A model generated the notes under the pieces. It saw nothing but the letters and a program-made list of their open reading frames with translations. It did no database searches and was not told the DNA's origin. Shown here one piece after another: positions 732-20,037 of a stretch of DNA of 22,973 nucleotides. Within the stretch, counting starts at the first letter, position 1, and each line of letters begins with the position of its first letter. This DNA comes from Candidatus Fervidifonticultor quintus (lineage in GTDB: Bacteria > Sysuimicrobiota > Sysuimicrobiia > Sysuimicrobiales > Humicultoraceae): NCBI GenBank assembly GCA_031459535.1, contig JAVKIJ010000049.1:1-22973 (forward strand). The letters are read 5' to 3'. Both the position numbers and the translations under genes were made by a program.

Positions 732-2033
732 TCAGAAAGGTAGTTCGATGGGCCAGCGCGCGGCTCCGAGCTGCCGGGCCTCTGCCGCAAGCACCAAATA
801 CCTGTCGGCAAGCTCGGAGTCCCCCCCGTCCTGCGCGGACTCAGCGGCGGCCGCCGCGGCCTCGGCCAGTTCGTCCGAGAAGTCGCTCGCGCGCAGCGCC
901 GCGATGGCCCCGGCGAGCACGTAGGACGCTTCCGCGTGCCGTCCGCGGGCCGCGAGGACCCGGCCGGCGAGCGCGTCGGCGCGCGCTCGGGCTACGCCGT
1001 CATCCAGGGCTTCGGCCAGCGCGTGCACGTCACCGCTCAGATCCGACGCCTGTTCCAGCTGCGCCGAGGCCAGGGCAGCCCTCGCCAGGCCGACCGTTGC
1101 GGCGAACTCCACCCGGCGATCGCCGAGTCTGGCGGCGAGATCCCGCGCCTCCTGCAGCAGGGGCACCGGATCTGGCGAGCCGCCCCTTTCCAGCGCGAGT
1201 AAGCCCCGGGCCAGGGCAATCTCCAGACGGGCCCGTGGTTCATCGGCGTCACGCAGTAGGCGCGCGGCCTCGGTCAGGGCGGCTGCGGCCTCCTCCGAGA
1301 GAGCCTCGAGGCGGTGGACCAGCGCCAGGCGCACGAGCGCGCGAGCGCCCCACGCGTCCAGTCCGTGGCGCTTCGCGAGTGCCACGGCCGACTGCAGGCG
1401 TCGCCGGGCCTGGCGGGGCTCGCCGCTCTGGGTCGCGGCCGCGGCCATCCCCAACAGGGCCTGGACGCCGAGGTCGGGATGGCGCACGGTGCGGCGCAAA
1501 CCGCCCAGCGCCCGCCGGAACCATGAGGCGGCCGCGCCGGCATCCCCGCGGCGCAGCGCCAGCCTGCCGGCGGTCAACGCGAGGCGCGCCCCAACCCGCG
1601 AAGTCGGGGAGTAGGGCAACCTCGCAGCCTCATCGAGCGCGGCCTGTGCGCGCTCTGGCTGGCCCGCGCGCAGTTCCAGGTCGGCCAGCAGCAGCAGGGC
1701 CTCGGCCGCGTGCAGGTCGGCGCCGCCGGGGGCCGCAATCTCGCGCACCAGCTCGATCGCCCGTCGCGCGGCGTCTAGGCGGCCGCCGCGCGCGGCGTCC
1801 TCGGCCCAGGCCACGAGTCCGGTCAGCATGGAGAGCCGTTGGTCTACCGCGTCCCCGGCCATCGTTGAGAGTCCCAACTGCAGCCGGCGGCCGAGAAACC
1901 GCAACGTGTCCAGCGATGGATCCGCATGGCCGCCCTCGAGTTGACTGATGAAGCTCTTGGTGTACTCGGCGCCGGCCAGATCGGCCTGGGTGAGTCCGAG
2001 TTCCCGGCGACGCTGGCGGATGCGCTGGCCCAC
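732..2033 (-). CDS. XRE-family helix-turn-helix plus TPR-repeat transcriptional regulator (NprR/PlcR-like architecture)
   Basis: C-terminal part of the 732..4466 ORF: 'VGQRIRQRRRELGLTQADLAGAEYTKSFISQLEGGHADPSLDTLRFLGRRL' is a Cro/C1 HTH, followed by Ala/Leu/Arg-rich helical repeats. Start taken as GTG at 2033 (GAGGA 7 nt upstream); ATG at 2081 is an alternative. Confidence 0.85.
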   Translation of the reverse strand: MGQRIRQRRRELGLTQADLAGAEYTKSFISQLEGGHADPSLDTLRFLGRRLQLGLSTMAGDAVDQRLSMLTGLVAWAEDAARGGRLDAARRAIELVREIAAPGGADLHAAEALLLLADLELRAGQPERAQAALDEAARLPYSPTSRVGARLALTAGRLALRRGDAGAAASWFRRALGGLRRTVRHPDLGVQALLGMAAAATQSGEPRQARRRLQSAVALAKRHGLDAWGARALVRLALVHRLEALSEEAAAALTEAARLLRDADEPRARLEIALARGLLALERGGSPDPVPLLQEARDLAARLGDRRVEFAATVGLARAALASAQLEQASDLSGDVHALAEALDDGVARARADALAGRVLAARGRHAEASYVLAGAIAALRASDFSDELAEAAAAAAESAQDGGDSELADRYLVLAAEARQLGAARWPIELPF

Positions 2034-2178
2034 AGGCGCTTCCTCAGGGGAAACGTGGCGACGAGACGGATGACGGCCCATACGCGTCCGGGCGGCGAGC
2101 AGCCGCCGTCTCCCCGACGATAGCCGAGAGGTCGTCGGCACGTCAACGACCCGCGCAGGTGACTGCCCAAAGTGCGCC

Positions 2179-2207
2179 TTGACAGTCGCAACCCCGTTTG
2201 CTATGCG
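2179..2207 (+). promoter_or_regulatory. Putative sigma70-type promoter of the hom-thrC-ask operon
   Basis: Perfect TTGACA (2179-2184), 17-nt spacer ending in TGc (extended -10), then a weak -10 TATGCG (2202-2207), about 20 nt before the hom start. Confidence 0.55.
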
Positions 2208-2228
2208 TGGGGCGTTGTGGGAGTTGGC

Positions 2229-3512
2229 GTGAAGGATCAGTGTCGTGTGGGGCTGCTGGGGCTGGGCACGGTCGGTTCGGCCGTCGCAGATCTGCTGCTG
2301 CATCGGGCTGGGGAGATCAGCTGGCGCGCGGGCATCCCGGTCAGGCTGCACCGCATCGCCGTAGCCCACCCGGACCGACCACGGCGCGTCGCGGTTCCCC
2401 CGGGGATGATCGTCGGTGATGCGCGCGCCGTGATCGACGACACGGCGGTGGATGTGGTCGTGGAGGTGATGGGAGGGATCGAACCGGCACGGTCGTACAT
2501 CGCCGCCGCGCTGGCCCGCGGCAAGGCCGTCGTGACCGCCAACAAGCAGCTGATGGCCTCGAGGGGCGATGAGCTGCTGGCGGCGGCGGCCCGTGCCGGT
2601 GCCGACCTGTTCTTTGAAGCCAGTGTCGGCGGCGGTATCCCCGTGATCAAGGCCATATGGGAATCGCTGGCCGCCAACACCATTGGTGAAATCGTGGGAA
2701 TCCTCAATGGGACGACGAATTTCATCCTCACCCGCATGTCTCGGGACGGTGTGGGGTTCGCCGAGGCGCTCGTCGCCGCCCAGCAGCGCGGCTTCGCCGA
2801 GAGTGATCCCACCGATGACGTAGACGGCCATGACGCAGCGGCCAAGCTGGCCATCCTGGCCTCGGTGGCCTTCGGCAGCCGTGTGGCCGGCGACGACGTC
2901 TACCGGGAAGGGATCGGCGGGATTACCCCGCGCGACATCGCCTACGCGCGGGAGTTGGGGTACGTGGTGAAGCTGCTGGCCATTGCGCGGTACGACCAGG
3001 GGACCGTTGAAGCACGCGTGCATCCGGCGTTGTTGCCCGCTGCGCACCCGCTGGCGTCGGTCAACGACGAGCTGAACGCCGTGATGATCGTTGGAGACCC
3101 TGTGGGTCCCATCGTGCTCGAGGGCCGCGGCGCCGGCGGAGGGCCGACGGCCAGTGCTGTGGTCGGTGACATCATCGACGCCGCGCGCAACCTCCGAATG
3201 GGGGCCGGTGGCCGTCTCGGCCATCGGGAACTGATCCGCCGCCCGATTCGTGAGATCGCCGAGATCGAGGTGCCGTATTGCCTCTTCCTCGAAGTGAGCG
3301 ACCGCCCAGGGGTCTTCGCCAAGGTGGCCGCAGCATTTGGCGACGAAGCGGTCAGCATCGCGTCCATCGTGCAGAAGAGCCGGGGCGTGACCGCTGATGT
3401 GGTGCTCGTGACCCACGACGCCCGGGAGGCTGCCATGCAACGGGTGCTGCGCCGCCTCCACGGACTGGACGTGGTGGCCTCGATCCACACGGTCCTGCGG
3501 ATCGCCGCCTAG
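2229..3512 (+). CDS. hom: Homoserine dehydrogenase with C-terminal ACT domain
   Basis: Rossmann motif GLLGLGTVG, 'VVTANK', 'FEASVGGGIP', 'GILNGTTNFIL', 'GFAESDPTDDVDGHDAAAK', 'GRGAGGGPTASAV', ACT 'DRPGVFAKV'. GTG start at 2229 with GGGAG 5 nt upstream. Confidence 0.97.
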   Translation: MKDQCRVGLLGLGTVGSAVADLLLHRAGEISWRAGIPVRLHRIAVAHPDRPRRVAVPPGMIVGDARAVIDDTAVDVVVEVMGGIEPARSYIAAALARGKAVVTANKQLMASRGDELLAAAARAGADLFFEASVGGGIPVIKAIWESLAANTIGEIVGILNGTTNFILTRMSRDGVGFAEALVAAQQRGFAESDPTDDVDGHDAAAKLAILASVAFGSRVAGDDVYREGIGGITPRDIAYARELGYVVKLLAIARYDQGTVEARVHPALLPAAHPLASVNDELNAVMIVGDPVGPIVLEGRGAGGGPTASAVVGDIIDAARNLRMGAGGRLGHRELIRRPIREIAEIEVPYCLFLEVSDRPGVFAKVAAAFGDEAVSIASIVQKSRGVTADVVLVTHDAREAAMQRVLRRLHGLDVVASIHTVLRIAA

Positions 3513-3521
3513 GGAGCGTCC

Positions 3522-4577
3522 GTGGCACATCAGCCGTGGCGGGGCGTGATCTGGGCGTACAGGGACATGCTGCCGGCCACCGAACGGGTGGTGACGCTCT
3601 ACGAAGGCGGTACGCCCCTCGTTCCGTCCGAGCGGCTCAGCCGGCAGCTGGCGCGGCCGGTGTGGCTGAAGATGGAGGGGAGCAACCCGACCGGATCGTT
3701 CAAGGATCGGGGCATGACGGTCGCCGTGAGCCGCGCGGTCTCGGGGGGCGCGCGGGGCGTGATCTGCGCGTCCACCGGCAATACCGCGGCGTCGGCTGCG
3801 GCGTACGCGGGCCGGGCGGGGATCCCATGCTGGATCCTGCTCCCCGCCGGGGCTGTGGCCCGGGGCAAACTCGTGCAGGCCGCGGTCCACGGTGCACAGA
3901 TTGTGGCCGTAGAGGGCCGGTTCGAGGATGCCCTGGGCCTGGCGCGCGCGGCGTCGGGCGAGGAGCTCGTCCTGGTAAACTCGGTGAACCCGATGCGGCT
4001 TGAGGGCCAGGCAACGGCGGCCTATGAGATCTGCGATGCGCTCGGCCACGCGCCGGCAGTGCTGGTGTTGCCCGTAGGCAACGGCGGCAACATCACGGCC
4101 TACTGGATGGGCTTCCGCCGGTACCGGGAGGCCGGGATCATCTCCGGGCTGCCCCGTCTCGTGGGCGTGCAGGCCGAGGGCGCGAACCCCCTGGTGCGCG
4201 GCGCGCCGGTGGACCGGCCGCACACCGTGGCCTCCGCCATCCGCATCGGCTGGCCGGCGACCTGGGCCGGCGCCATGGAGGCAGCGACCGCGTCGGGAGG
4301 ACGCATCGCCGATGTGGACGACGAGGAGATCCTCCGCGCGCAGCGCACCCTGGCCGAGGAAGGGATCTTCGTCGAACCGGCGTCGGCAGCGGCGGTGGCC
4401 GGCCTGCGGCGCCTGAGCGCCGCGGACCTGCCGGCCGGTGATGTGGTCTGTGTGCTGACCGGGCACGGCCTGAAGGATCCCGACGTGGTGACCATGCCGG
4501 AACCGGTGCGCGTGCCGGCGACGGTGGAGGCCGTGCGCGCGTTGCTCGGACGCTCAGGAGGGGTGCAGTGGCACTGA
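3522..4577 (+). CDS. thrC: Threonine synthase (PLP-dependent, fold type II)
   Basis: 'EGGTPL', PLP-lysine motif '[10 protein letters not shown]', '[14 protein letters not shown]', '[12 protein letters not shown]', '[11 protein letters not shown]'. GTG start with AGGGAG upstream. Confidence 0.97.
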
Positions 4578-10066: not shown

Positions 10067-11875
10067 ATGTCGTCATCGGGTGATACCCAGAGCAACCGGG
10101 CATCGGCGGCGATCCGGCGTCTGTCGCTGGTAGCCAGCGTCTCTACAGGGGTCCTGCTGCTGGTCGGAGCGACGGTGAGCGCCACTGGCGCCGGGCTAGC
10201 CTGCCCTGACTGGCCCCTGTGCCACGGCCGCCTCATTCCTCCCCTTGATCCCCTGGTCCTCATCGAATGGGGACACCGTCTGCTGGCGTCCGCGATCGGG
10301 CTCATGATGGCGGCTCTGGCCGTGCTGGTGTGGCGCCGGGGGTTGCGCGGCCTCGGGCGTCTGATGGTGACCCTCCTGCTCTTGCTGGCGGCGCAGGTGG
10401 GGCTGGGTGGCGCGACCGTGCTCTCGCGGCTCGTCCCGTTCGTGATCGGGACGCACCTGCTGACCGCGATGACGTTCCTGGCGCTGCTCGTGCTCTTTAC
10501 GGCCAGGGTCTGGTGGGCGGACGGTGCGGCGCAAGGGGCGCTCGCCCCGCCCGCGGGCCTGGCGTCTGCTGCCCATCTGGCGTTGGCGCTGACCTTCCTG
10601 CAGGTTGCATTGGGCGGCTACACCAGCGCGTTCGGCGCGGGCATGGCGTGTCCGGACTTCCCGCTGTGTCGCGGTCGCCTGTTCCCAGGCGGCGATCCGC
10701 TGGTGATGCTGCACTACGCGCATCGCCTGGTGGCGTTTGCGCTGGCGGTCACCGTGGCCGTAGTGGCGGCTCGAGCGAGGCTCAGCCGTGACCGCACCGT
10801 CCGCGTTGCCGCCGCGACGGCCATGTTGGCGGTGATCGTTCAGGTAGCGCTGGGCGCGGCCAACGTCCTGACGCACATGTGGATCCCGGTGCGCGTCGCG
10901 CACCTGGGCGGAGCCGCCACGCTGGTGGCAGCGCTGGTGGTGCTGACCGTCCGTGCGCGGCTGGCAGTGGCCGCAGCGAGCGCGGGGGCCTCGGCCGCCG
11001 GTCCCGGCGGGCTGCGGGCCGTCGTGGCCGATTACGTGGCGCTGACCAAGCCGCGCATTGTGGTGCTGCTGCTGCTGACCACCATTGCCGCCATGGTGGT
11101 GGCCGCCGGCGGGCCCGTGACGTGGGCGTTGGCCGTCTACACGCTGCTGGGCGGCGCCCTTGCGGCCGGCGCCGCCAACGCCATCAACTGCTACTGGGAT
11201 CGCGACATCGACGCTGTCATGCTCCGCACGCGGAAGCGGCCCATTCCTGCTCGACGCATCGCGCCCCGGCGCGCGCTGGCGTTCGGCGCAGCCCTGGCGG
11301 CGGGGTCGGTGCTCGTTTTGGGCCTGGCGGTCAACTGGCTCAGCGCAAGCCTGGCCTTTGCCGGGATCGCCTACTATGTGGTCGTCTACACCATGTGGTT
11401 GAAACGGGCGACCGCGCAGAACATCGTCATCGGCGGCGCCGCCGGCGCCATCCCGCCCCTGGTCGGGTGGGCCGCGGTGCGGGGAGACGTGGACCTGGCG
11501 GCCCTGGTGCTCTTTGCCATCGTCTTCCTGTGGACCCCGCCGCACTTCTGGGCGCTGGCCCTCAACCGCAGCGAGGAGTATCGTGCCGCCCGGATTCCCA
11601 TGCTGCCCGTGGTGCGCGGGACCGGGGAGACCGTGCGGCAGATTGGGCTGTACACGCTGGCGCTGATCGCGTCCACGCTGCTGCTGGGCGTGCTGGGCGT
11701 GCTGGGACGCCTGTACCTGGCCTCGGCCATGGTGCTGGCCGTCCCTTTCATCTGGTTGGCCGCGCGGCTCGCCCGCCACACGACGTCCCGGGCCGCGTGG
11801 GCGCTGTTTGGCTACTCGATCCTCTACCTTGGGTTGCTGTTCTTCTCGATGGCCCTCGATCGGCTACTGGCGTGA
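10067..11875 (+). CDS. ctaB: Fused heme A synthase (CtaA/COX15) and heme O synthase (protoheme IX farnesyltransferase, CtaB/CyoE)
   Basis: N-half: 'GAGLACPDWPLC', 'EWGHR', second 'GAGMACPDFPLC', 'HYAHR' (CtaA type 1). Ala/Gly linker at ~10960-11015. C-half: 'LTKPRIV', 'NCYWDRDIDAVMLRTRKRPIP', 'NIVIGGAAGAIPPLVGW', 'WTPPHFWAL'. Confidence 0.93.
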   Translation: MSSSGDTQSNRASAAIRRLSLVASVSTGVLLLVGATVSATGAGLACPDWPLCHGRLIPPLDPLVLIEWGHRLLASAIGLMMAALAVLVWRRGLRGLGRLMVTLLLLLAAQVGLGGATVLSRLVPFVIGTHLLTAMTFLALLVLFTARVWWADGAAQGALAPPAGLASAAHLALALTFLQVALGGYTSAFGAGMACPDFPLCRGRLFPGGDPLVMLHYAHRLVAFALAVTVAVVAARARLSRDRTVRVAAATAMLAVIVQVALGAANVLTHMWIPVRVAHLGGAATLVAALVVLTVRARLAVAAASAGASAAGPGGLRAVVADYVALTKPRIVVLLLLTTIAAMVVAAGGPVTWALAVYTLLGGALAAGAANAINCYWDRDIDAVMLRTRKRPIPARRIAPRRALAFGAALAAGSVLVLGLAVNWLSASLAFAGIAYYVVVYTMWLKRATAQNIVIGGAAGAIPPLVGWAAVRGDVDLAALVLFAIVFLWTPPHFWALALNRSEEYRAARIPMLPVVRGTGETVRQIGLYTLALIASTLLLGVLGVLGRLYLASAMVLAVPFIWLAARLARHTTSRAAWALFGYSILYLGLLFFSMALDRLLA

Positions 11876-12809: not shown

Positions 12810-14807
12810 ATGACCCGTATGACCGTGGAACTGCGCGACCGGCAGGGCCGCGTGATCGCCTCCGGCGCCAGGGTGCGCAGTGGCGACCTGGAAGGCATCG
12901 TGCGCCGGATCGATCCCGGAGCCGGCGTCATCACCGTGGTGGTGGAGGGCCGTACCGGGAAGAGCGAGCGGATGGTCCGGATCGGCGACCTCGAGGTCGT
13001 CGAGGAGGCCCCGGGCTCGGGTGCCCACGCCGTGGCCGCCGAGCACGGCGAGGGTTTCATCCGCAAGTACATCTTCAGCCTGGACCACAAGGTCATCGGC
13101 ATCCAGTACATGCTGACCTCGCTGGTCATGGCGCTGATCGGCGGGACGCTGGCCATGCTGATCCGCATGCAGCTCGGGTGGCCCGGGGCCCGCTGGGGCC
13201 TGGCCGCGGCACTCTTTCCCGGCGGCTTTGCCGGTGGCCAGCTGAAGCCCGACTTCTACCTGGCCGTGGTGACCATGCACGGCACCATCATGATCTTCTT
13301 CGTGCTCACCACGATCCTCTCGGGCGGCTTCGGCAACTTCCTGATCCCGCTCCAGATCGGCGCGCGCGACATGGCCTTTCCGTGGCTGAACATGATGTCG
13401 TACTGGCTGGTGGTGCCGGCGATCGCGGTGCTGCTGCTCTCGTTCCTCGTTACCGGGGGCGCCGCCGGTAGTGGCTGGACCGCGTACCCGCCGCTGTCGG
13501 CGATCCCTGCCGCCGGCCCGGGCTCGGGGTTGGGCCAGACGCTCTGGCTGGTGGCCCTGGCGATCCTGATCATCGCCCTGCTGTTCGGGTCGCTGAACTA
13601 CATCACGACGATCCTCCAGCTCCGTACCCGCGGCATGTCGATGATGCGCCTGCCGCTCACGGTCTGGGGGTTGTTCATCACGGCCATTCTCATGTTGCTG
13701 TCGTTCCCCGTGCTGTTCGCCGCGGCGATCATGTTGCTGTTTGATCGCCTGGGGGGCACCAGCTTCTTCGTGCCGGCGGGCGTGTACGTGGGCGGGCAGG
13801 TGCTCACCCACACCGGCGGCAACCCGTTGTTGTGGCAGCACCTGTTCTGGTTCCTGGGCCATCCGGAGGTCTACGTGCTGATCCTGCCAGCGATGGGCAT
13901 GGTCTCAGACATCATGGCGTCCCAGGGTCGCAAGCCCATCTTCGGCTACACCTTCATGGTGGGATCAATGGCGGCCATCGGCATCCTGAGCTTCCTGGTC
14001 TGGGCCCACCACATGTATACCAGCGGCATGCATCCCCTGGTGGCGATGGCCTTCATGACCACGACCCTGGCCATCGCGGTGCCCTCGGCGATCAAGACCT
14101 TCAACTGGCTGGCGACGCTGTGGCGCGCCCGCATTCAGTTCACGCCCCAGATGCTCTTTTCCATCGGGTTCGTCTCGCTGTTCGTCACCGGAGGTCTGAC
14201 AGGGGTGTTCCTGGCCCAGCCGCCCGTGGACACCTACATGCACGATACCTACTTCGTGGTGGCGCACTTCCACTTCGTCATGGCCAGCGCGGCGCTGTTC
14301 GGCGTCTTCGCCGGCATCTACCACTGGTTCCCCAAGATGTTCGGGCGTACGCTGAACCCGCTGCTGGGCAAGATCCACTTCTGGCTCACGTTCGTGGGCA
14401 TCTACGCCACGTTCTTCCCGATGCACTTCGCGGGCTTTGCGGGCATGATGCGCCGGATCTACTCCACGCAGCTGTACGCTCACCTGCAGGCCGTCGGGCC
14501 GCTCAACACCTTCATCTCGCTGGCGGCATTCGGGCTGGGCCTCGCCCAGGTGGTCTTCATCTACAACTTCCTCGTAAGTCTGCGCCGGGGTCCGAGGGCC
14601 GAGCGGAACCCGTGGCGCGCCACGACGCTGGAGTGGGAGGCGCCTTCGCCTCCGCCCCACGGCAACTTCGGAGAGGTGCTGCCCGTGGTGCATCGGTGGG
14701 CGTACGACTACAGTGTGCCCGGCGCCGCGGACGACTTCATCCCGCAGAGCGTGCCGGTCACCGCGCCTGCTGCGGGCGCGTCGGGCCCGCGTGAGGAGCA
14801 TCGGTGA
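12810..14807 (+). CDS. ctaD: Cytochrome c oxidase subunit I (heme-copper oxidase, type A1, CoxN-like) with an extra N-terminal domain
   Basis: 'SLDHKVIG', 'TMHGTIMIF', 'GWTAYPPL', 'WFLGHPEVY' (A1 signature), 'WAHHM', 'VVAHFH'. AGGAGG at 12793-12798 precedes ATG 12810. Confidence 0.97.
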   Translation: MTRMTVELRDRQGRVIASGARVRSGDLEGIVRRIDPGAGVITVVVEGRTGKSERMVRIGDLEVVEEAPGSGAHAVAAEHGEGFIRKYIFSLDHKVIGIQYMLTSLVMALIGGTLAMLIRMQLGWPGARWGLAAALFPGGFAGGQLKPDFYLAVVTMHGTIMIFFVLTTILSGGFGNFLIPLQIGARDMAFPWLNMMSYWLVVPAIAVLLLSFLVTGGAAGSGWTAYPPLSAIPAAGPGSGLGQTLWLVALAILIIALLFGSLNYITTILQLRTRGMSMMRLPLTVWGLFITAILMLLSFPVLFAAAIMLLFDRLGGTSFFVPAGVYVGGQVLTHTGGNPLLWQHLFWFLGHPEVYVLILPAMGMVSDIMASQGRKPIFGYTFMVGSMAAIGILSFLVWAHHMYTSGMHPLVAMAFMTTTLAIAVPSAIKTFNWLATLWRARIQFTPQMLFSIGFVSLFVTGGLTGVFLAQPPVDTYMHDTYFVVAHFHFVMASAALFGVFAGIYHWFPKMFGRTLNPLLGKIHFWLTFVGIYATFFPMHFAGFAGMMRRIYSTQLYAHLQAVGPLNTFISLAAFGLGLAQVVFIYNFLVSLRRGPRAERNPWRATTLEWEAPSPPPHGNFGEVLPVVHRWAYDYSVPGAADDFIPQSVPVTAPAAGASGPREEHR

Positions 14808-15472
14808 GCCCGGCGGCCGGAAGCACCCTCCAGGAGCCGCACGTGCGTCCCGGCCGCGGTGGACCGATGACGCCGCCCGGGCACGGCGACGACAGCTACC
14901 CCGGTGGCTGGTCCGGCGGCGGGAGCGCCTCCGCACCGCCCGCTGATACGGCCACCATCGGCGTCTGGCTCCTCGTGGCAGCCGTCGTCATCCTGTTCGC
15001 GTCGTTCACCAGCACGCTGGTCGTCCGGCGGGCGGAGAGCGACTGGCGTCCCGGACCCATGCCGGCGATCCTGTGGGTGAACACGGCCGCCCTGTTGGCC
15101 AGTAGCGTCACCCTGGAGTGGGCGCGCGCGGGGGGGCGGGGCGGGCGCCTAGCCGATCTGCGGCTGGGCCTCGCGGCGACCGGGGGGCTCGGCGGGGCGT
15201 TCCTGGTCGGTCAGCTGGCGGCGTGGCGGCAGCTACTGGCCTCGGGCATCGCGTTGGCCACCGGCCCCAGCAGCGCGTTCTTCTACCTGCTGACCGGCGC
15301 CCATGGGTTGCACCTGGTGGGAGGCCTGGGTGCCCTGCTGTATGGGTCCTGGCGCGTCCGTCGGTTCTCGCCTGCAGACCAGGTGCCACCGGTGCTGGCG
15401 CCGCTGGCGATCTACTGGCATTTCGTGGGTGTGCTGTGGCTGTATGTCTTCGTCCTGCTGTCCCTGAGCTAG
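14804..15472 (+). CDS. Cytochrome c oxidase subunit III-like protein, first copy (CoxO-like)
   Basis: 'NTAALLASSVTL', 'FLVGQ', 'FFYLLTGAHGLHLVGG', 'YWHFVGVLWLYVF'. GTGA overlap with the subunit I stop; GAGGAG RBS. Confidence 0.9.
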   Translation: MSPAAGSTLQEPHVRPGRGGPMTPPGHGDDSYPGGWSGGGSASAPPADTATIGVWLLVAAVVILFASFTSTLVVRRAESDWRPGPMPAILWVNTAALLASSVTLEWARAGGRGGRLADLRLGLAATGGLGGAFLVGQLAAWRQLLASGIALATGPSSAFFYLLTGAHGLHLVGGLGALLYGSWRVRRFSPADQVPPVLAPLAIYWHFVGVLWLYVFVLLSLS

Positions 15473-15499: not shown

Positions 15500-16123
15500 G
15501 TGACACCTGCTGAAACCGCGACTCAGGATCAGGTGCTGGCGTCAGAGTGGGGCGGGGGAAGATCCCCGTTTGCGGTCGGCTGGCCCAAACTGATGATGTG
15601 GCTGTTCTTGATCCAGGACACCCTGACCTTTGCCGGGCTCCTGACGGGCTACGGGGTCGTCCGGCTGTCGAACGGCCGCTGGCCGGTCCAGGGTGAGATC
15701 TTCAACCTCTACCTGGTCGGGTTCATGACCTTCATTCTCATTTGCAGCAGCGCCACCATGGCTGTGGCGGTGGCCGCCGCCCGGCAGCGGGACCGGGCGC
15801 GGGTCATCCGGTTTCTGTTGCTGACCGTGCTGGGCGGGCTCATCTTCCTGGGCTGCCAGGCCTACGAGTGGGCCCACTTCATCAGGGAGGGTGCGCGCCT
15901 GTTCGCCAACCCGTGGGGCATCCCGCTGTTCTCGGCCTCGTTCTTCGTGATTACGGGCTTCCACGGCGGGCACGTGACCGCGGGCGTCGTCTACCTCCTG
16001 ATCACCGCCATCCGCGAGGCGCGCGGCGCCATCGCGGCCGAGAGCGTGGAGATCGCGGGCCTGTACTGGCACTTTGTGGACTTGGTCTGGGTCTTCATCT
16101 TCACCCTGCTGTATCTGTTGTGA
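15500..16123 (+). CDS. Cytochrome c oxidase subunit III-like protein, second copy (CoxP-like)
   Basis: 'WGGGRSPF...KLMMWLFL', 'TFILICSSATM', 'QAYEW', 'FFVITGFHGGHV', 'GLYWHFVDLVWVFIF'. GGGAGG RBS before GTG. Confidence 0.92.
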   Translation: MTPAETATQDQVLASEWGGGRSPFAVGWPKLMMWLFLIQDTLTFAGLLTGYGVVRLSNGRWPVQGEIFNLYLVGFMTFILICSSATMAVAVAAARQRDRARVIRFLLLTVLGGLIFLGCQAYEWAHFIREGARLFANPWGIPLFSASFFVITGFHGGHVTAGVVYLLITAIREARGAIAAESVEIAGLYWHFVDLVWVFIFTLLYLL

Positions 16124-16140
16124 GCGAGAGGAGACAACCG

Positions 16141-16434
16141 GTGAACGAGACCGAGCGGGGCGGCTATCGCATCTATTGGGTGACCTGGTTCTGGCTGCTG
16201 ATCATCACCATCGTGGAGGTGGCCATCGTCCTGGTTCAGCTGCCCAGGGCCTTCCTGGCGGCCTCGCTGGCCACTCTGGCGCTCATGAAGGCCGCGTTGA
16301 TCGTCGCCTACTTCATGCACCTGCGCTACGAGCGAATCAATTTCGTCTACACGGTGGTCACGCCCCTCTTTCTGGCGGTGATTCTGTTCTTCGCGCTCGT
16401 GCCCGACGCGCTGAACACCCTGCGGTTGAGGTAG
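16141..16434 (+). CDS. Cytochrome c oxidase subunit IV family protein (CoxQ/CtaF-like)
   Basis: GAGGAG RBS, GTG 16141; 97 aa with three hydrophobic segments and 'KAALIVAYFMHLRYE'; last gene of the oxidase cluster. Confidence 0.9.
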   Translation: MNETERGGYRIYWVTWFWLLIITIVEVAIVLVQLPRAFLAASLATLALMKAALIVAYFMHLRYERINFVYTVVTPLFLAVILFFALVPDALNTLRLR

Positions 16435-16476
16435 CGCGCCCCGGGCGGCTGCGTGGCTCTCCCGCCGGCCGGCGCG

Positions 16477-16505
16477 TTGAGCGCCGGGAAGCGCAGGGGT
16501 ACACT
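16477..16505 (+). promoter_or_regulatory. Putative sigma70-type promoter for the MNT-HEPN fusion and Nfu_N genes
   Basis: TTGAGC (16477-16482), 17 nt, TACACT (16500-16505); GGAGGT RBS at 16542-16547 downstream. Confidence 0.6.
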
Positions 16506-16552
16506 GGAGTCGAGGCCCCTCGTCCTGTGGTCCGTGGCGCCGGAGGTCGTCT

Positions 16553-17455
16553 GTGCGCGCGATCGAGGTCCTGAAGACGTTCTTCTCGCAGTCCCCGGAA
16601 GTGGCGGCTGTGTACCTGTACGGGCGGTACGGCAGTGGGCCCAGCTATCCCGACACCGATATCGAGCTGGGCCTGGTCTTCCCCGAGGGCACCGGAGAGG
16701 ACGACATCCGAGACTATCTGGAGCGCATCTCCGAGGCCAGCCCGCTGGGCAACGAACCCGGCATCCTCATGCCCTTCGCCCTCAACACCCACATCCTGCC
16801 GGTGGTGCACGAGGTCCTCTCGGGGGGGACGCTGCTGGTCGACACCGATACGCGGGCGCGCATCGCCTTCGTCGAGGCCGCGCGCGCCCGCATCGAAGCG
16901 GCGCGCGTCGGTCTGCTCGACGACGCCCGCGAGACCATCAACCAGGCGCGATCGCTGGGTCTGGCCACATCGGCGGTGTCTGGCTACGTGCTCCCGCAGC
17001 CGCCGCGGTCACTGGATCCCATCAGGATCGGGTGGAGGCTGGGTCGGGTGCTGGCATCGGTGGCAGTCCTGGAGGCAGCCACCCGCGATGCCGAGGCGCT
17101 GGCGCGCGACGCCGACCGCCTGGGTCAGGCCATCGGGTGGTTCAGCAACGCCGTTGGGGCCGCCACGGGCATTACCAAGGCCATGCTGAGCATGTTCGAG
17201 ATGGAGCGGCCTCCGCGGCGCTGGCAGGTGTTCATCCCGCTGGCAGACGCCGGGTTGATTCCCATGGACCTGGCACTGGCCCTGGCCGCGCTGGTGGAGC
17301 TGCGGTGGCAGTTGCTCGGGGCCAGCGGGCTGGTGGCCGCAGAGCGAATCGTGGTGGGCATGCGCGGAGGGCTGCCGTACCTGGTCATGTTCGCCCGGCT
17401 GGCGGCCTGGTACTGTGAGGTGCCCGGCGGCCGGGGCGATGCAAAGGTACACTGA
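16553..17455 (+). CDS. Fusion of a minimal nucleotidyltransferase (MntA-like) domain and a HEPN/DUF86 (HepT-like) domain, both with degenerate catalytic motifs
   Basis: N-terminal 'VAAVYLYGRYGSGPSYPDTDIELGLVF...LN...EVLSGGTLLVDTD..AR.AF' follows the MntA pattern. C-terminal 'P...QVF..LADAGLIP.DLA.AL..LVELRWQLLGAS..V..ERI' follows the DUF86 pattern. Intact 300-aa ORF with strong RBS. Confidence 0.72.
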   Translation: MRAIEVLKTFFSQSPEVAAVYLYGRYGSGPSYPDTDIELGLVFPEGTGEDDIRDYLERISEASPLGNEPGILMPFALNTHILPVVHEVLSGGTLLVDTDTRARIAFVEAARARIEAARVGLLDDARETINQARSLGLATSAVSGYVLPQPPRSLDPIRIGWRLGRVLASVAVLEAATRDAEALARDADRLGQAIGWFSNAVGAATGITKAMLSMFEMERPPRRWQVFIPLADAGLIPMDLALALAALVELRWQLLGASGLVAAERIVVGMRGGLPYLVMFARLAAWYCEVPGGRGDAKVH

Positions 17456-17502
17456 GACGCCGGCTCCGCCTCCGGTGCCGGCAAGATGTGGGGGGACGGG
17501 AT

Positions 17503-17784
17503 GTGAGTGACCCGGTGCGCGTGGAGATTCAGCCGACGCCCAACGTGAACGCGCTCAAGTTCCTGGTCAACCGCAGGCTGACCGAGGGCCGCAGCCAGAC
17601 GTTCCGGTCAGCCGAGGATGCGGCCGCCCATCCGCTGGCCGCCCGGTTGTTTGCGATCCCCGGCGTGGTGCAGGTGTTCGTGCTCAACGACTTCGTCACG
17701 GTCACCCGGGAGCCGGGGGCGGCCTGGGACACCATCGCCGGCGCAGCGGAGACGGCGATACGGGAACACCTGGGCGGCAGCTAG
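17503..17784 (+). CDS. Stand-alone Nfu/NifU N-terminal (scaffold) domain protein
   Basis: 'IQPTPNVNALKF', 'PLAARLFAIPGVVQVFVLNDFVTVTR...W' is the Nfu_N pattern; no Cys and no NifU C-terminal domain. GTG 17503 behind GGGGGA (GTG 17488 is an alternative). Confidence 0.88.
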   Translation: MSDPVRVEIQPTPNVNALKFLVNRRLTEGRSQTFRSAEDAAAHPLAARLFAIPGVVQVFVLNDFVTVTREPGAAWDTIAGAAETAIREHLGGS

Positions 17785-19034
17785 GCCTGCGGCGGGCTGG
17801 CCACCAGCCACACCGGGTTCTCGAGTAGCCGCTTCACCTCGCCCAGGAACTTCGCCACCTCGGCGCCGTCGGTCACGCGGTGATCAGCGGAGACCGTGGC
17901 CTGCATGGTTGTCGCCACCACCACGGTGCCGTCGCGCACCACGGGACGGGGTGAGGCGGCGCCCACCGCCAGGATGGCCGCCTGCGGTGGATTGATGATG
18001 GCCGAGAAGACCTCCACGCCATACATCCCCAGGTTGCTGATGGTGAAGGTACCGCCGGTCAGATCCTCAGGCCGCAGCCGTCCGGTCCGGGCACGTTCGG
18101 CCAGGGTCCTGCTGTCCGTTGCGATCTCCCACAGCGACTTGCGGTCGCAGTGGTAGAGCGTCGGCGCGATCAGTCCTTCGGGGAGCGCGACGCCGATGTT
18201 GATGTTGATCTCGGTGTTGTAGCGGATGGCCTCACCGGTGAAGGACGCGTTCAGCGCCGGGAACTTGGTCAGCGCCAGGGCCGCCGCCCGCACCACCATG
18301 TCGTTGATGGAGATCCTGGCCGCCTCCGGCTGACCCTCGTTGAGCTGCTTGCGCAGCGCCAGGGCCGCGTCCATGGTAATGGTCATGGCGATGTAGATGT
18401 GGGGCACCCGCTGTTTGCTCTCCGTCATGCGGCGGGCGATGGTCTGGCGCATGCGGGTCAGCGGTACGTCCGCGGGCGGGGCGGCAGCGGTGGGGGGCCC
18501 CACCGGTGCCCGGGCCGCCGGAACCGGCGGGCGGGACGCCGCGGCGATGGCGGCTTCCACGTCCTCCTTCGTGATGCGTCCCTCGGGTCCGGTCCCGGCA
18601 ATCGAGGCCAGCGAGATGCCATGCTGTGCCGCCAGCCGGCGCGCCAGCGGCGATGCGCGGACCGCCCCGGGCGGGGCAGGGGTGGCTGGTCCCCTGGCGA
18701 GGGTCGACGCCGGCTCGGGCGTGTCCTCAGGAACGGCCGGAGCGGCCGGACGTGGCGCCTGCATCGGTGGCGGCGTGGCCGCGCGATCTGGCGTCGCGCC
18801 GGACGCATCCAGGACGGCGATCGGTGCGCCCACAGGCGCGACCTCGCCGGCGCCGACCAGGATCCGGGCCACAACGCCGTCCCACTCGGCCTCCAGGTCT
18901 ACGTTCACCTTGTCGGTCTCGATCTCGGCGATCGGCTCGCCCTTGCGGACCGCCTCACCTGGCTGCTTCATCCATCGGACGATGCGGCCTTCGGTCATGG
19001 CATCGCCCATCTTGGGCATGATGATCTCAGGCAT
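17781..19034 (-). CDS. pdhC: Dihydrolipoamide acetyltransferase (2-oxoacid/pyruvate dehydrogenase E2), one lipoyl domain
   Basis: Start 'MPEIIMPKMGDAMTEG', lipoyl-Lys motif 'IETDKV', E3-binding 'RASPLARRLA...GTGPEGRITKEDV', catalytic 'TFTISNLG' and 'DHRVTDG'. ATG 19034 overlaps the pdhB end. Confidence 0.95.
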   Translation of the reverse strand: MPEIIMPKMGDAMTEGRIVRWMKQPGEAVRKGEPIAEIETDKVNVDLEAEWDGVVARILVGAGEVAPVGAPIAVLDASGATPDRAATPPPMQAPRPAAPAVPEDTPEPASTLARGPATPAPPGAVRASPLARRLAAQHGISLASIAGTGPEGRITKEDVEAAIAAASRPPVPAARAPVGPPTAAAPPADVPLTRMRQTIARRMTESKQRVPHIYIAMTITMDAALALRKQLNEGQPEAARISINDMVVRAAALALTKFPALNASFTGEAIRYNTEININIGVALPEGLIAPTLYHCDRKSLWEIATDSRTLAERARTGRLRPEDLTGGTFTISNLGMYGVEVFSAIINPPQAAILAVGAASPRPVVRDGTVVVATTMQATVSADHRVTDGAEVAKFLGEVKRLLENPVWLVASPPQA

Positions 19035-20037
19035 GGCGCGGTTCGCCCCCTGCGGCTGGTTCCCTGTAGAGCGTGCGCCGTGCCGCCCGTACGATGTCTT
19101 CCACGTTGGGGAGCGCCAGCAGTTCCAGGTTGCGCGCATACGGCATGGGCACGTCCGCGCCCGCCACCCGCTCCACCGGCGCGTCCAACAGGTCGAACGC
19201 GCCTTCGCTGATCGTGGTCGCGAGCTCGGCACCGGCACCGAAAAGCCGCCATTGCTCCTGCACGACCACCGCCCGGTGGGTTCGGCTGGCCGATGCGACG
19301 AGCGTGTGTCGGTCGAGCGGCCGCAGGGTTCGCAGGTTGATGACTTCGGCGTCGATGCCTTCCGCCGCCAGGTGCTCCGCCGCCTCCAGCGCCACATGCA
19401 GCATCCGGCCGTAGGCGACGATGGTGACATCGCGGCCCGGGCGTGCCACCTCGGCCTGACCGAAGGGGATGGCGAAGTCGCCGTCTGGAACCTCGCCCTT
19501 GAGGCTGTAGAGCGCGGCGTGCTCCAGGAAGATGACCGGGTCCTTGCCGCGCAGGGCGGTGCGCAGCAGACCTTTCGCCTCGGCCGGGGTGGCCGGCACC
19601 ACCACTCGCAGGCCCGGCACGTGGGCGTAGATCGCCTCCAGGCTCTGGGAGTGCTGCGCCGAGAGCTGCACGCCCGCGCCGTTGGGTCCGCGGATCACCA
19701 GGGGCACGTCCACCTGGCCTCCCGAAAAGTAGCGGATCTTTGCGGCGTTGTTGACGATCTGGTCGTATGCCAGCAGGGAGAAGTTCCAGGTCATCATCTC
19801 GACCACGGGCCGCAACCCCAGCATGGCCATCCCGATGGCGGCGCCAACGAATCCCAGTTCGGAGATGGGCGTGTCAATGACCCGGGTGGGGCCGTAGCGA
19901 TTTAGCAGATCGGCGGTGATCCGGAAGGTGCCTTGATACTGGCCGATGTCTTCCCCGAGGAGCACCACGGTGGGGTCCCGATCCATCTCTTCGATCAGGG
20001 TCGAGCGGATGGCGTCGCGAAAAGATAGTTCGGGCAT
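19027..20037 (-). CDS. pdhB: Pyruvate dehydrogenase E1 beta subunit
   Basis: 'LGEDIG', 'DTPISELGFVG', 'GLRPVVEMM', 'SAQHSQS', 'DPVIFLEH', 'INLRTLRPLD', 'DVPMPYA'. Confidence 0.95.
   Translation of the reverse strand: MPELSFRDAIRSTLIEEMDRDPTVVLLGEDIGQYQGTFRITADLLNRYGPTRVIDTPISELGFVGAAIGMAMLGLRPVVEMMTWNFSLLAYDQIVNNAAKIRYFSGGQVDVPLVIRGPNGAGVQLSAQHSQSLEAIYAHVPGLRVVVPATPAEAKGLLRTALRGKDPVIFLEHAALYSLKGEVPDGDFAIPFGQAEVARPGRDVTIVAYGRMLHVALEAAEHLAAEGIDAEVINLRTLRPLDRHTLVASASRTHRAVVVQEQWRLFGAGAELATTISEGAFDLLDAPVERVAGADVPMPYARNLELLALPNVEDIVRAARRTLYREPAAGGEPRHA

Follow-up and report, generated by a model that had tools for sequence, protein, structure and literature searches.

In the type VII toxin-antitoxin system HepT/MntA of Shewanella oneidensis (SO_3166/SO_3165; PDB 5yep, 6m6v, 7bxo), MntA, a minimal nucleotidyltransferase (MNT) with a GSx10DxD motif, AMPylates a Tyr within the Rx4HxY motif of the HEPN toxin HepT. 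As described for this pair, S28 of MntA contacts the beta and gamma phosphates and S38 also contacts phosphates, D39 and D41 hold one Mg ion, D39, D41 and D71 hold a second, a GS-to-AT or DxD-to-ExE substitution abolishes AMPylation, and Y104 of HepT is the AMP acceptor (PMC7641770). A fused MNT-HEPN toxin-antitoxin with intact motifs, FhepTA of Shewanella, was characterised in 2026 (Yao et al., Nucleic Acids Res 2026, PMC13000451). FhepTA is reported to keep GSx10DxD, RxxxxH and the acceptor Tyr, to self-AMPylate (oligoAMPylation on Tyr), to become toxic once its HEPN half is freed, and to sit on mobile elements. Here, we analyse a related gene at 16553..17455 on the forward strand of a 22,973-nucleotide stretch of DNA (the window) from Candidatus Fervidifonticultor quintus. 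Its single 300-residue product carries both domains with both motifs altered, and comparison with its relatives strongly supports a real gene that was derived from a toxin-antitoxin module and domesticated, and that is not decaying. The original prediction for this gene, made from the letters of the window, had taken type VII systems to consist of two genes, a view that FhepTA has put out of date.

The window protein resembles FhepTA in being one polypeptide with an N-terminal MNT domain, a linker and a HepT-type HEPN domain, about 276-300 residues in all. Its family departs from FhepTA in four missing residues (the Ser, third Asp, His and Tyr), in a Pro-rich linker of greater length, in a tail whose last residue is His, and in being a chromosomal core gene. 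With the two-gene HepT/MntA system the family shares both folds, the Gly, the first Asp and the Arg, as well as the pattern of an acidic MNT and a basic HEPN part. It differs in being fused, in scoring about 22 against 60 bits with the NCBIfam models, in having its catalytic and acceptor residues replaced, and in not being patchily distributed.

More distant comparisons are also instructive. Kanamycin nucleotidyltransferase, AadA/AAD(9), LinB and glutamine synthetase adenylyltransferase likewise join an MNT-type domain to a helical HEPN-like domain without RNase residues, following the same evolutionary idea of a former toxin-antitoxin module. These domesticated enzymes keep the complete set of catalytic carboxylates. 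In contrast, the window HEPN half is much closer to HepT, and the whole-length likeness to these enzymes is weak (template modelling (TM) score about 0.3); in a comparison with the aminoglycoside nucleotidyltransferase (ANT)/AadA type, 6sxj_A matched with Z 7.4, a root mean square deviation (rmsd) of 5.4 and 197 aligned residues, the third carboxylate being absent in the window family. MtlR and the sacsin HEPN domain share a HEPN fold without the RNase His, but they have no MNT fusion and are unrelated at the family level (sacsin 3o10_A, Z 7.7, within the helical-bundle background). For HEPN domains of the MtlR/sacsin type, binding of RNA or nucleotides has been proposed or demonstrated (PMC3710099, PMC13669270, 10.64898/2025.12.18.694329).

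Motif state across the family

The gene and its motif positions are as follows.

16553..17455 (+), including the stop codon: coding sequence of the fused MNT-HEPN protein, 300 residues, GTG start; conserved length, one copy per genome, ratio of nonsynonymous to synonymous substitution rates (dN/dS) far below 1
16622..16666 (+): altered nucleotidyltransferase motif G24-R25 ... D34-T35-D36-I37-E38, replacing GSx10DxD (179-sequence census)
16766..16768 (+): L72, at the place of the third catalytic Asp, which is D71 in S. oneidensis MntA; aligned to the VDL/VDI strand of intact fusions
17303..17326 (+): remnant of Rx4HxY, R251-W252-Q-L-L-G256-A-S258, aligned with RNxLVHxY

For the motif census, 121 database proteins, 67 locus translations and the window protein were combined into 179 unique sequences; a fragment of 75 residues from the end of a contig failed the E-value cut, and this locus was left out. 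Columns were assigned from a MAFFT alignment with intact fused relatives, a profile-profile alignment and a phmmer alignment to MntA 5yep_A, in which G27/S28/S38/D39/D41 of MntA lie opposite G24/R25/T35/D36/E38. The coordinates and residues of both motifs had been predicted exactly. The prediction had also read the third Asp strand as 'MPFALN'; the Asp is indeed gone, but MPFALN corresponds to residues 73-78, and the aligned Asp column is L72.

The same positions are changed in all 179 unique members. Of the functionally tested positions, four (Ser, third Asp, His, Tyr) are changed, while the Gly, the first Asp and the Arg are strictly kept. In the MNT half, G24, D34, D36 and E38 each occur in 179/179 sequences, and position 35 is T or S in 29/29 aligned rows. 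The replacement of the second Asp by Glu (E38) is a conservative change that was then frozen. The Ser column (25) varies widely (R107, Q29, T15, K11, A6, S5, V2, L2, G1, H1), and the third Asp column (72) holds only hydrophobic residues (L165, V14). In the HEPN half, R251 and W252 are each invariant in the 179 sequences, whereas the His column (256) reads T140, A17, G11, S10 and L1, with no His, and the Tyr column (258) is variable, with Tyr in none.

Further residues are fixed outside the inherited motifs. N78, H80 and E87 are each present in 179/179 members, as is the last residue, H300; P291 is conserved in at least 98%. Eleven Arg residues of the HEPN half are kept in at least 98% of members (R158, R162, R165, R178, R219, R222, R223, R251, R265, R271 and R282). 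The C-terminal tail (P291-G-G...H300) is missing from intact fused relatives, and H300 lies on a low-confidence stretch of the predicted structure. N78 and H80 sit just after the strand that lost its Asp. The H300 tail, N78/H80 or the Pro-rich linker could belong to a rebuilt site.

HEPN RNases require an Arg-His pair (PMC3710099), and the His column is unconstrained here; the RNase is therefore very probably dead. With the Tyr acceptor lost, the known control circuit through Tyr AMPylation cannot operate. The MNT half appears to be in a different state, since the invariance of G24, D34, D36 and E38 argues for a pocket that is still under selection, at least for binding, and against simple decay. 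The originally predicted double pseudo-enzyme is thus half supported: the variable His and Tyr columns fit a dead RNase and a lost AMP acceptor, while the MNT pocket residues, invariant in 179/179 sequences, speak for a pocket still in use, at least for binding.

Distribution and selection

Relatives come from public records of Candidatus Fervidifonticultor, Sysuimicrobium and others in the phylum Candidatus Sysuimicrobiota (CSP1-3). The phylum was sampled with 94 genomes from one order, 7 families and 31 genera, and a match was defined by E ≤ 1e-20. The degenerate fusion was found in 88/94 genomes, with exactly one copy in each (86/92 without two unpublished genomes), in 53 of the 54 high-quality genomes (completeness 90% or more, contamination 5% or less), and in 29/31 genera; two of the 88 matches are cut, covering residues 1-194 and 1-75. 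Five of the six matchless genomes (G044 and G045, which are both genomes of one genus, G010, G011 and G023) stayed without a match in a second search at E 0.001, although at 76-93% completeness loss and missing assembly are not separable. As that one genus lacks it in both of its genomes, the gene may truly have been lost there. In contrast to the fusion, canonical HepT-like matches are patchy, occurring in 43/94 genomes and 27/54 high-quality ones with 0-6 copies per genome. In the protein atlas, the family forms its own cluster of 234 members, most commonly from Candidatus Sysuimicrobiota.

Selection was estimated by the Nei-Gojobori method (NG86) from 44 coding sequences of exactly 900 nt. 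Pairs with dS 0.1-0.4 gave dN/dS of 0.03-0.17, and the window gene compared with five relatives at dS 0.86-1.06 gave 0.14-0.20; both domains behave alike, with values of 0.03-0.2 that are well below 1. The claim that this gene is not decaying is strongly supported by the kept length of 300 residues, the single copy in 88/94 genomes, the low dN/dS, the shared substitutions and the absence of a mobile context.

Domain architecture and predicted dimer

The protein divides into four parts.

16553..16957 (+): MNT (MntA-like) domain with a long C-terminal helix, residues 1-135; Polbeta/MntA profiles, AlphaFold2 model and structure matches
16958..17017 (+): inter-domain linker, residues 136-155; low-confidence middle, strongly conserved Pro-rich end LPQPPRxLDP
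17018..17422 (+): HepT-type HEPN (DUF86) helical domain, residues 156-290, basic with an isoelectric point (pI) of 9.25; fold and profile matches
17423..17452 (+): family-specific C-terminal tail, residues 291-300 (P291-G-G ... H300), ending in the invariant His

Profile matches to the single sequence are weak. Pfam Polbeta (PF18765) covers residues 7-100 of the open reading frame (ORF) with E 2.4e-5 and 24.9 bits, below the cut-off of 26.9, while the genomic frame scores 27.8 bits against the same cut-off; in the precomputed table, this family is assigned to many but not all members. Pfam HepT-like (PF01934) matches residues 178-251 (E 0.008, 16.3 bits, 18.1 in a second scan) below its cut-off of 23.5, and NCBIfam MntA_antitoxin and HepT_toxin reach 22.4 and 22.3 bits, respectively, where 60 bits is the cut-off for each. 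When the single protein was compared by sequence with the PDB, the only rows lay at E 0.65-1.2 (MntA and a chance glyceraldehyde-3-phosphate dehydrogenase), too weak on their own.

The AlphaFold2 model, built from 29 family members, is confident (mean predicted local distance difference test (pLDDT) 89.4, predicted TM score 0.89), and pLDDT falls below 50 solely at residues 138-145 and 294-300. Its MNT half contains strands 19-23, 36-42, 71-76 and 93-97 followed by helix 100-134. In a VIA-align search of representatives, residues 155-287 matched HepT SO_3166 (5yep_B) with Z 16.8, rmsd 1.6 Å and 133/133 residues aligned, and further matches of this half were 7ae2_A (Z 15.5) and YutE 1ylm_B (Z 14.7). 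Residues 1-99 matched HI0073 (Z 8.5) and the MNT antitoxin 8xeh_E (Z 8.3), each with rmsd 3.2 and 90 aligned residues. Foldseek listed MntA and HepT chains with probability 1.00; with the whole model it gave zero rows at E ≤ 0.001, and the HepT match is clear by the VIA-align search. On the predicted structure, the assignment of an MNT domain followed by a HepT-type HEPN domain is right. The predicted order of the two domains and their MntA/Pol-beta and DUF86/HepT folds are thus borne out, by the structure matches and by weak profile matches.

The linker residues L147, P148, P150, P151, L154, D155 and P156 are invariant in 29/29 sequences, and the Pro-rich linker exceeds that of intact fused relatives, which show a gap there in the alignment, by about 9 residues. 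The MNT half is acidic, with a pI of 4.6 (family median 4.5), and the HEPN half is basic, with a pI of 9.25 (family median 9.5).

When two copies were predicted together, the dimer score was 0.56, compared with 0.00 for the best of three controls, with pLDDT of at least 85 and runs agreeing in at least 69% of contacts. The mark used for this score was reached by 20/30 solved same-chain pairs and by 1/23 solved single chains. The predicted interface is symmetric and comprises residues 224, 237-253 and 265-275, which belong to the HEPN helices around the old motif. This prediction supports a symmetric HEPN dimer.

Probable origin from a fused ancestor

A profile search of 1.84 billion cluster representatives returned 147 proteins at E ≤ 0.001. 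Only 7 representatives reach E ≤ 1e-30, of which six match parts of the profile, and the sole one covering the full profile is P0121 (300 residues, 52% identical to the window protein); the family thus has one full-length 50%-identity cluster among these representatives. After a gap follow stand-alone MNT proteins of about 140 residues (E 1e-10 and weaker) and a few fused proteins of 281-297 residues. Together with a 286-residue paralogue from the genome of the window, 8 of these representatives make up a set of intact fusions, none from Shewanella. All 9 keep the G, S, S, D, D, third D, R, H and Y, and the three that were scanned pass both NCBIfam cut-offs. The family profile matched the profile of the 9 intact fusions with 99.5% probability and E 3.4e-22 over 283 columns, and the nearest atlas clusters after its own contain proteins of 275-293 residues carrying HepT-like and Polbeta. 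No intermediate with one degenerate site was seen among the 8 fused representatives and the paralogue, a sample too small to prove absence.

The paralogue (L074:1429-2289 (+), contig C50) reads GS...DVD, LDLADL and RNVLVHEY, and passes the NCBIfam type VII cut-offs with 70.5 and 64.3 bits. It directly follows a 111-residue ORF without NCBIfam match. The same genome also holds an overlapping pair on contig C73, MntA with 175 residues (L073:1369-1896) and HepT with 147 residues (L073:1886-2329 (+), RNRLAHEY), which score 60.9 and 86.1 bits, respectively, and both pass. One genome therefore shows three states, namely the two-gene pair, the intact fusion and the degenerate fusion. Because the family matches intact fusions over its full length and its nearest atlas clusters are fused, the simplest history, which we infer here from alignments, would start from a fused MntA-HepT protein, with loss of the catalytic residues as a later step.

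Proposed function and alternatives

The reading that we prefer, and to which we would give about an even chance, is a domesticated descendant of a FhepTA-like protein that is now a non-catalytic, dimeric binder or regulator. The gene would then encode a vertically inherited, single-copy core protein, descended from a fused type VII MntA-HepT of the FhepTA kind, that no longer cleaves RNA and acts neither as a toxin nor on itself by AMPylation. A homodimer formed through the HEPN domains would bind ligands instead of processing them. In the acidic MNT half, a pocket of G24, D34, T/S35, D36 and E38 may still hold a Mg-nucleotide, and without the third carboxylate it would probably not support efficient nucleotidyl transfer; such binding without efficient transfer is favoured since the third carboxylate is now Leu or Val and the Ser is free to vary. 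In the basic HEPN half, an Arg-rich surface at the old active-site cleft (R251/W252 and ten more Arg) would receive RNA or a phosphate-rich ligand, a kind of binding that is suggested by the basic character of this half and its eleven kept Arg residues. A nucleotide- or RNA-responsive regulator or scaffold would be the likely role.

Several points weigh against this reading. The good dimer score may reflect only likeness to solved HepT dimers, and in FhepTA the MNT domain is reported to hinder HEPN dimerisation (PMC13000451). The invariant G24, D34, D36 and E38 would fit an active enzyme equally well. A D-x-E arrangement is compatible with catalysis in some enzymes of the Pol-beta fold, such as kanamycin nucleotidyltransferase. 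A pure binder leaves the invariant H300 on its flexible tail, N78 and H80 unexplained, and these could rebuild a catalytic site. Finally, the grouping of the Arg residues into one surface is suggested only by their spacing along the chain.

The most serious alternative is an active nucleotidyltransferase with a remodelled site made of D34, D36 and E38 on one strand, perhaps with N78, H80 or H300, which we consider possible though distinctly less probable. The HEPN half would in this case have been exapted for binding a substrate, either a small molecule or some protein in place of the old HepT Tyr, as has been proposed for kanamycin nucleotidyltransferase, aminoglycoside adenylyltransferases and glutamine synthetase adenylyltransferase (PMC3710099). 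Such an enzyme would account for the invariance of G24, D34, D36, E38, N78, H80 and E87 in 179/179 members, and it agrees with the description of MNT-fused HEPN domains as typically lacking RNase residues and serving active nucleotidyltransferases (Anantharaman et al. 2013, PMC3710099). Whole-length Foldseek rows at E 3e-3 to 4e-2 also point to AAD(9) 6xz0, AadA 5lpa/6fzb, LinB 3jyy and the nucleotidyltransferase-like 3c18; E87 of AadA is named in PDB titles among these rows. However, over the whole length the ANT enzymes match poorly (TM 0.26-0.34, rmsd 10-15 Å), the third carboxylate column is Leu or Val throughout, and the Ser column of GS is unconstrained. In MntA, D71 and S28, which correspond to these two columns, are in contact with Mg or phosphate, and mutants in the motifs are inactive (PMC7641770).

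That the protein still works as a FhepTA-type toxin-antitoxin or defence module, toxic through RNA binding or an alternative RNase site and held in check by its MNT half, seems improbable. Its full-length homology to fused HepT-MntA, the kept R251 and the basic HEPN half are consistent with such a role, and the 2013 survey mentions that a screen had found toxicity for some HEPN proteins lacking the motif (PMC3710099). A single copy in 88/94 genomes with partly conserved synteny, low dN/dS and no mobile genes is nevertheless unlike bona fide HepT with its patchy 43/94, and the Tyr acceptor and third Asp of the known control mechanism are gone. Slightly more remote is the originally predicted decoy for other HEPN toxins, an inhibitor that would pair through its HEPN face with resident canonical HepT toxins or soak up MntA. 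The predicted interface is the HEPN dimer face and the genome does encode MntA and HepT as a canonical pair besides the intact fused paralogue, but the gene occurs in 53/54 high-quality genomes, of which only half carry any HepT-like match. With HepT-like matches in just 27/54 of these genomes, selection on the degenerate fusion cannot depend on resident HepT toxins, which weakens the decoy considerably.

Genomic neighbourhood

Upstream of the gene lies a cytochrome oxidase cluster (CtaA-CtaB fusion, COX2, COX1 and two COX3 genes), and downstream an Nfu_N gene is followed by a convergent E2/E1beta/E1alpha (2-oxoacid dehydrogenase) operon.

17488..17784 (+): Nfu_N-domain gene, 98 residues (PF08712, E 1.9e-24), 32 bases past the stop codon of the fusion gene

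No mobile-element families were found among the 19 window ORFs scanned, so that the predicted setting among respiratory and dehydrogenase genes without mobile context is confirmed. Conservation of this neighbourhood is partial. The gene that stays nearby most often is Nfu_N: in 24/68 related loci it is the immediate neighbour on the same strand, and in 21/68 it follows within 3.5 kb downstream, on the same strand but not adjacent; it is absent from 19/68 loci with at least 3.5 kb read, and 4/68 are undecided. Where a gene lies between the fusion and Nfu_N, it encodes a PASTA Ser/Thr kinase or is a sigma-54 gene. In a survey of 28 flanking ORFs from 10 loci, the loci without Nfu_N were flanked by histidine kinase/response regulator genes and by helix-turn-helix (HTH)-tetratricopeptide repeat (TPR) or LuxR-type regulators. 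The cox genes flank the fusion in closer relatives only, and a functional link to the cytochrome oxidase operon was therefore rejected; more distant loci carry histidine kinase/response regulator, HTH-TPR, LuxR-type, PASTA kinase or sigma-54 genes in their place. We thus take the neighbourhood for synteny by inheritance; a link to Nfu_N is possible but unproven.

Some neighbouring genes are unusual in themselves. Ahead of the oxidase genes, an ORF of 602 residues at 10067-11875 (+) combines a heme A synthase domain (COX15-CtaA) with a heme O synthase domain (UbiA/CtaB). In its listed form, the COX1 ORF (12810-14807, +) has about 95 residues before the COX1 domain, which starts at residue 96; this excess is either an extra N-terminal domain or a start codon called too early. 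Two consecutive COX3-family genes (14804-15472 and 15500-16123, +) are followed by a small hydrophobic ORF (frame 16140-16434) with no Pfam match, a possible subunit IV. On the reverse strand, 732-4466 encodes a protein of 1244 residues that contains HTH_3 and TPR repeats. In more distant relatives (L027, L034, L039, L061), the fusion gene is flanked by smaller regulators of the HTH-TPR kind, often accompanied by a LuxR-type gene and a pair of genes for a GAF histidine kinase and a response regulator. The listed E2 acyltransferase ORF (17781-19430, -; 549 residues) overlaps the end of the E1-beta gene and has its lipoyl domain from residue 135, and its true start is probably internal.

Gene model and transcription

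The window is very rich in G+C, and long ORFs occupy several frames at 16553-17455; the reading frame therefore needs outside support. This is provided by the lengths of homologues, their aligned ends and the low dN/dS in frame. A database search with the 300-residue protein gave 183 matches at E ≤ 0.001, and the best 120 of these are 57-97% identical and nearly all 297-307 residues long. Homologues begin at the same aligned residue, which supports the GTG start, and their stop positions align too.

16542..16547 (+): Shine-Dalgarno-like GGAGGT, 5 nt ahead of the GTG start

The single 300-residue ORF and its GGAGGT, both part of the original prediction, were read directly, whereas the candidate promoter was not confirmed: a consensus scan found no sigma-70-like promoter in 16000-18000, a result of little weight since the host promoters may depart from that consensus. 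The same scan found no terminators in this interval, with the same reservation. An Rfam scan of 16100-17900 at E up to 1 gave two sub-threshold rows, sR40 (21.3/50 bits) and MIR531 (21.1/70 bits), which were taken as chance, and the 126-nt leader (16435-16560) folds no better than its shuffles (z 0.25) and shows no riboswitch sign. Metatranscriptome contigs from one library, which belongs to the same study as the possible source sample, are identical to the window over 16810-17106 and 17200-17479, with no other letters. They are a weak hint of transcription, as DNA carry-over is possible and strand and level are not readable from contigs.

Significance

The original prediction of an undescribed system was overstated. 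Fusions are known (PMC13000451), an intact fused paralogue is present in the same genome, and the 2013 HEPN survey already proposed domestication with an inactive HEPN domain and described cellular nucleotidyltransferases as products of former toxin-antitoxin systems (PMC3710099). What is new is a family in which the nucleotidyltransferase site is also cut down, which is closest to HepT/MntA proper, and which is a near-universal single-copy gene of one phylum. No description of a degenerate core-genome MNT-HEPN fusion was found in the full-text literature searched, or in the main texts, supplements aside, of papers on the phylum. With the idea of domestication already in print, the finding extends a known theme and opens no new one.

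Toxin-antitoxin modules are usually selfish, patchy and short-lived. Here, such a module is fused, disarmed and, under strong purifying selection, kept as a single copy across almost all known genomes of a phylum. Since the two ancestral states, pair and intact fusion, are found in the same genome, they form a clean natural series with the degenerate fusion. This series bears on how a HEPN RNase and its AMPylating partner are converted, on which residues serve binding and which catalysis, and on what cellular need is served. The degenerate fusion is also a practical signature gene for this uncultured phylum.

A bolder extension, which we regard as doubtful, is that the module was fixed at the root of the phylum and rebuilt as a new housekeeping factor. 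Its MNT pocket would sense Mg-ATP, and the Arg/Trp-lined cleft of the old RNase, possibly completed by H300, would bind or process a specific cellular RNA or phosphorylated ligand, perhaps together with the linked Nfu_N protein. If this were true, the family would represent both an activity unseen in any HepT/MntA relative and a lineage-defining signature protein.

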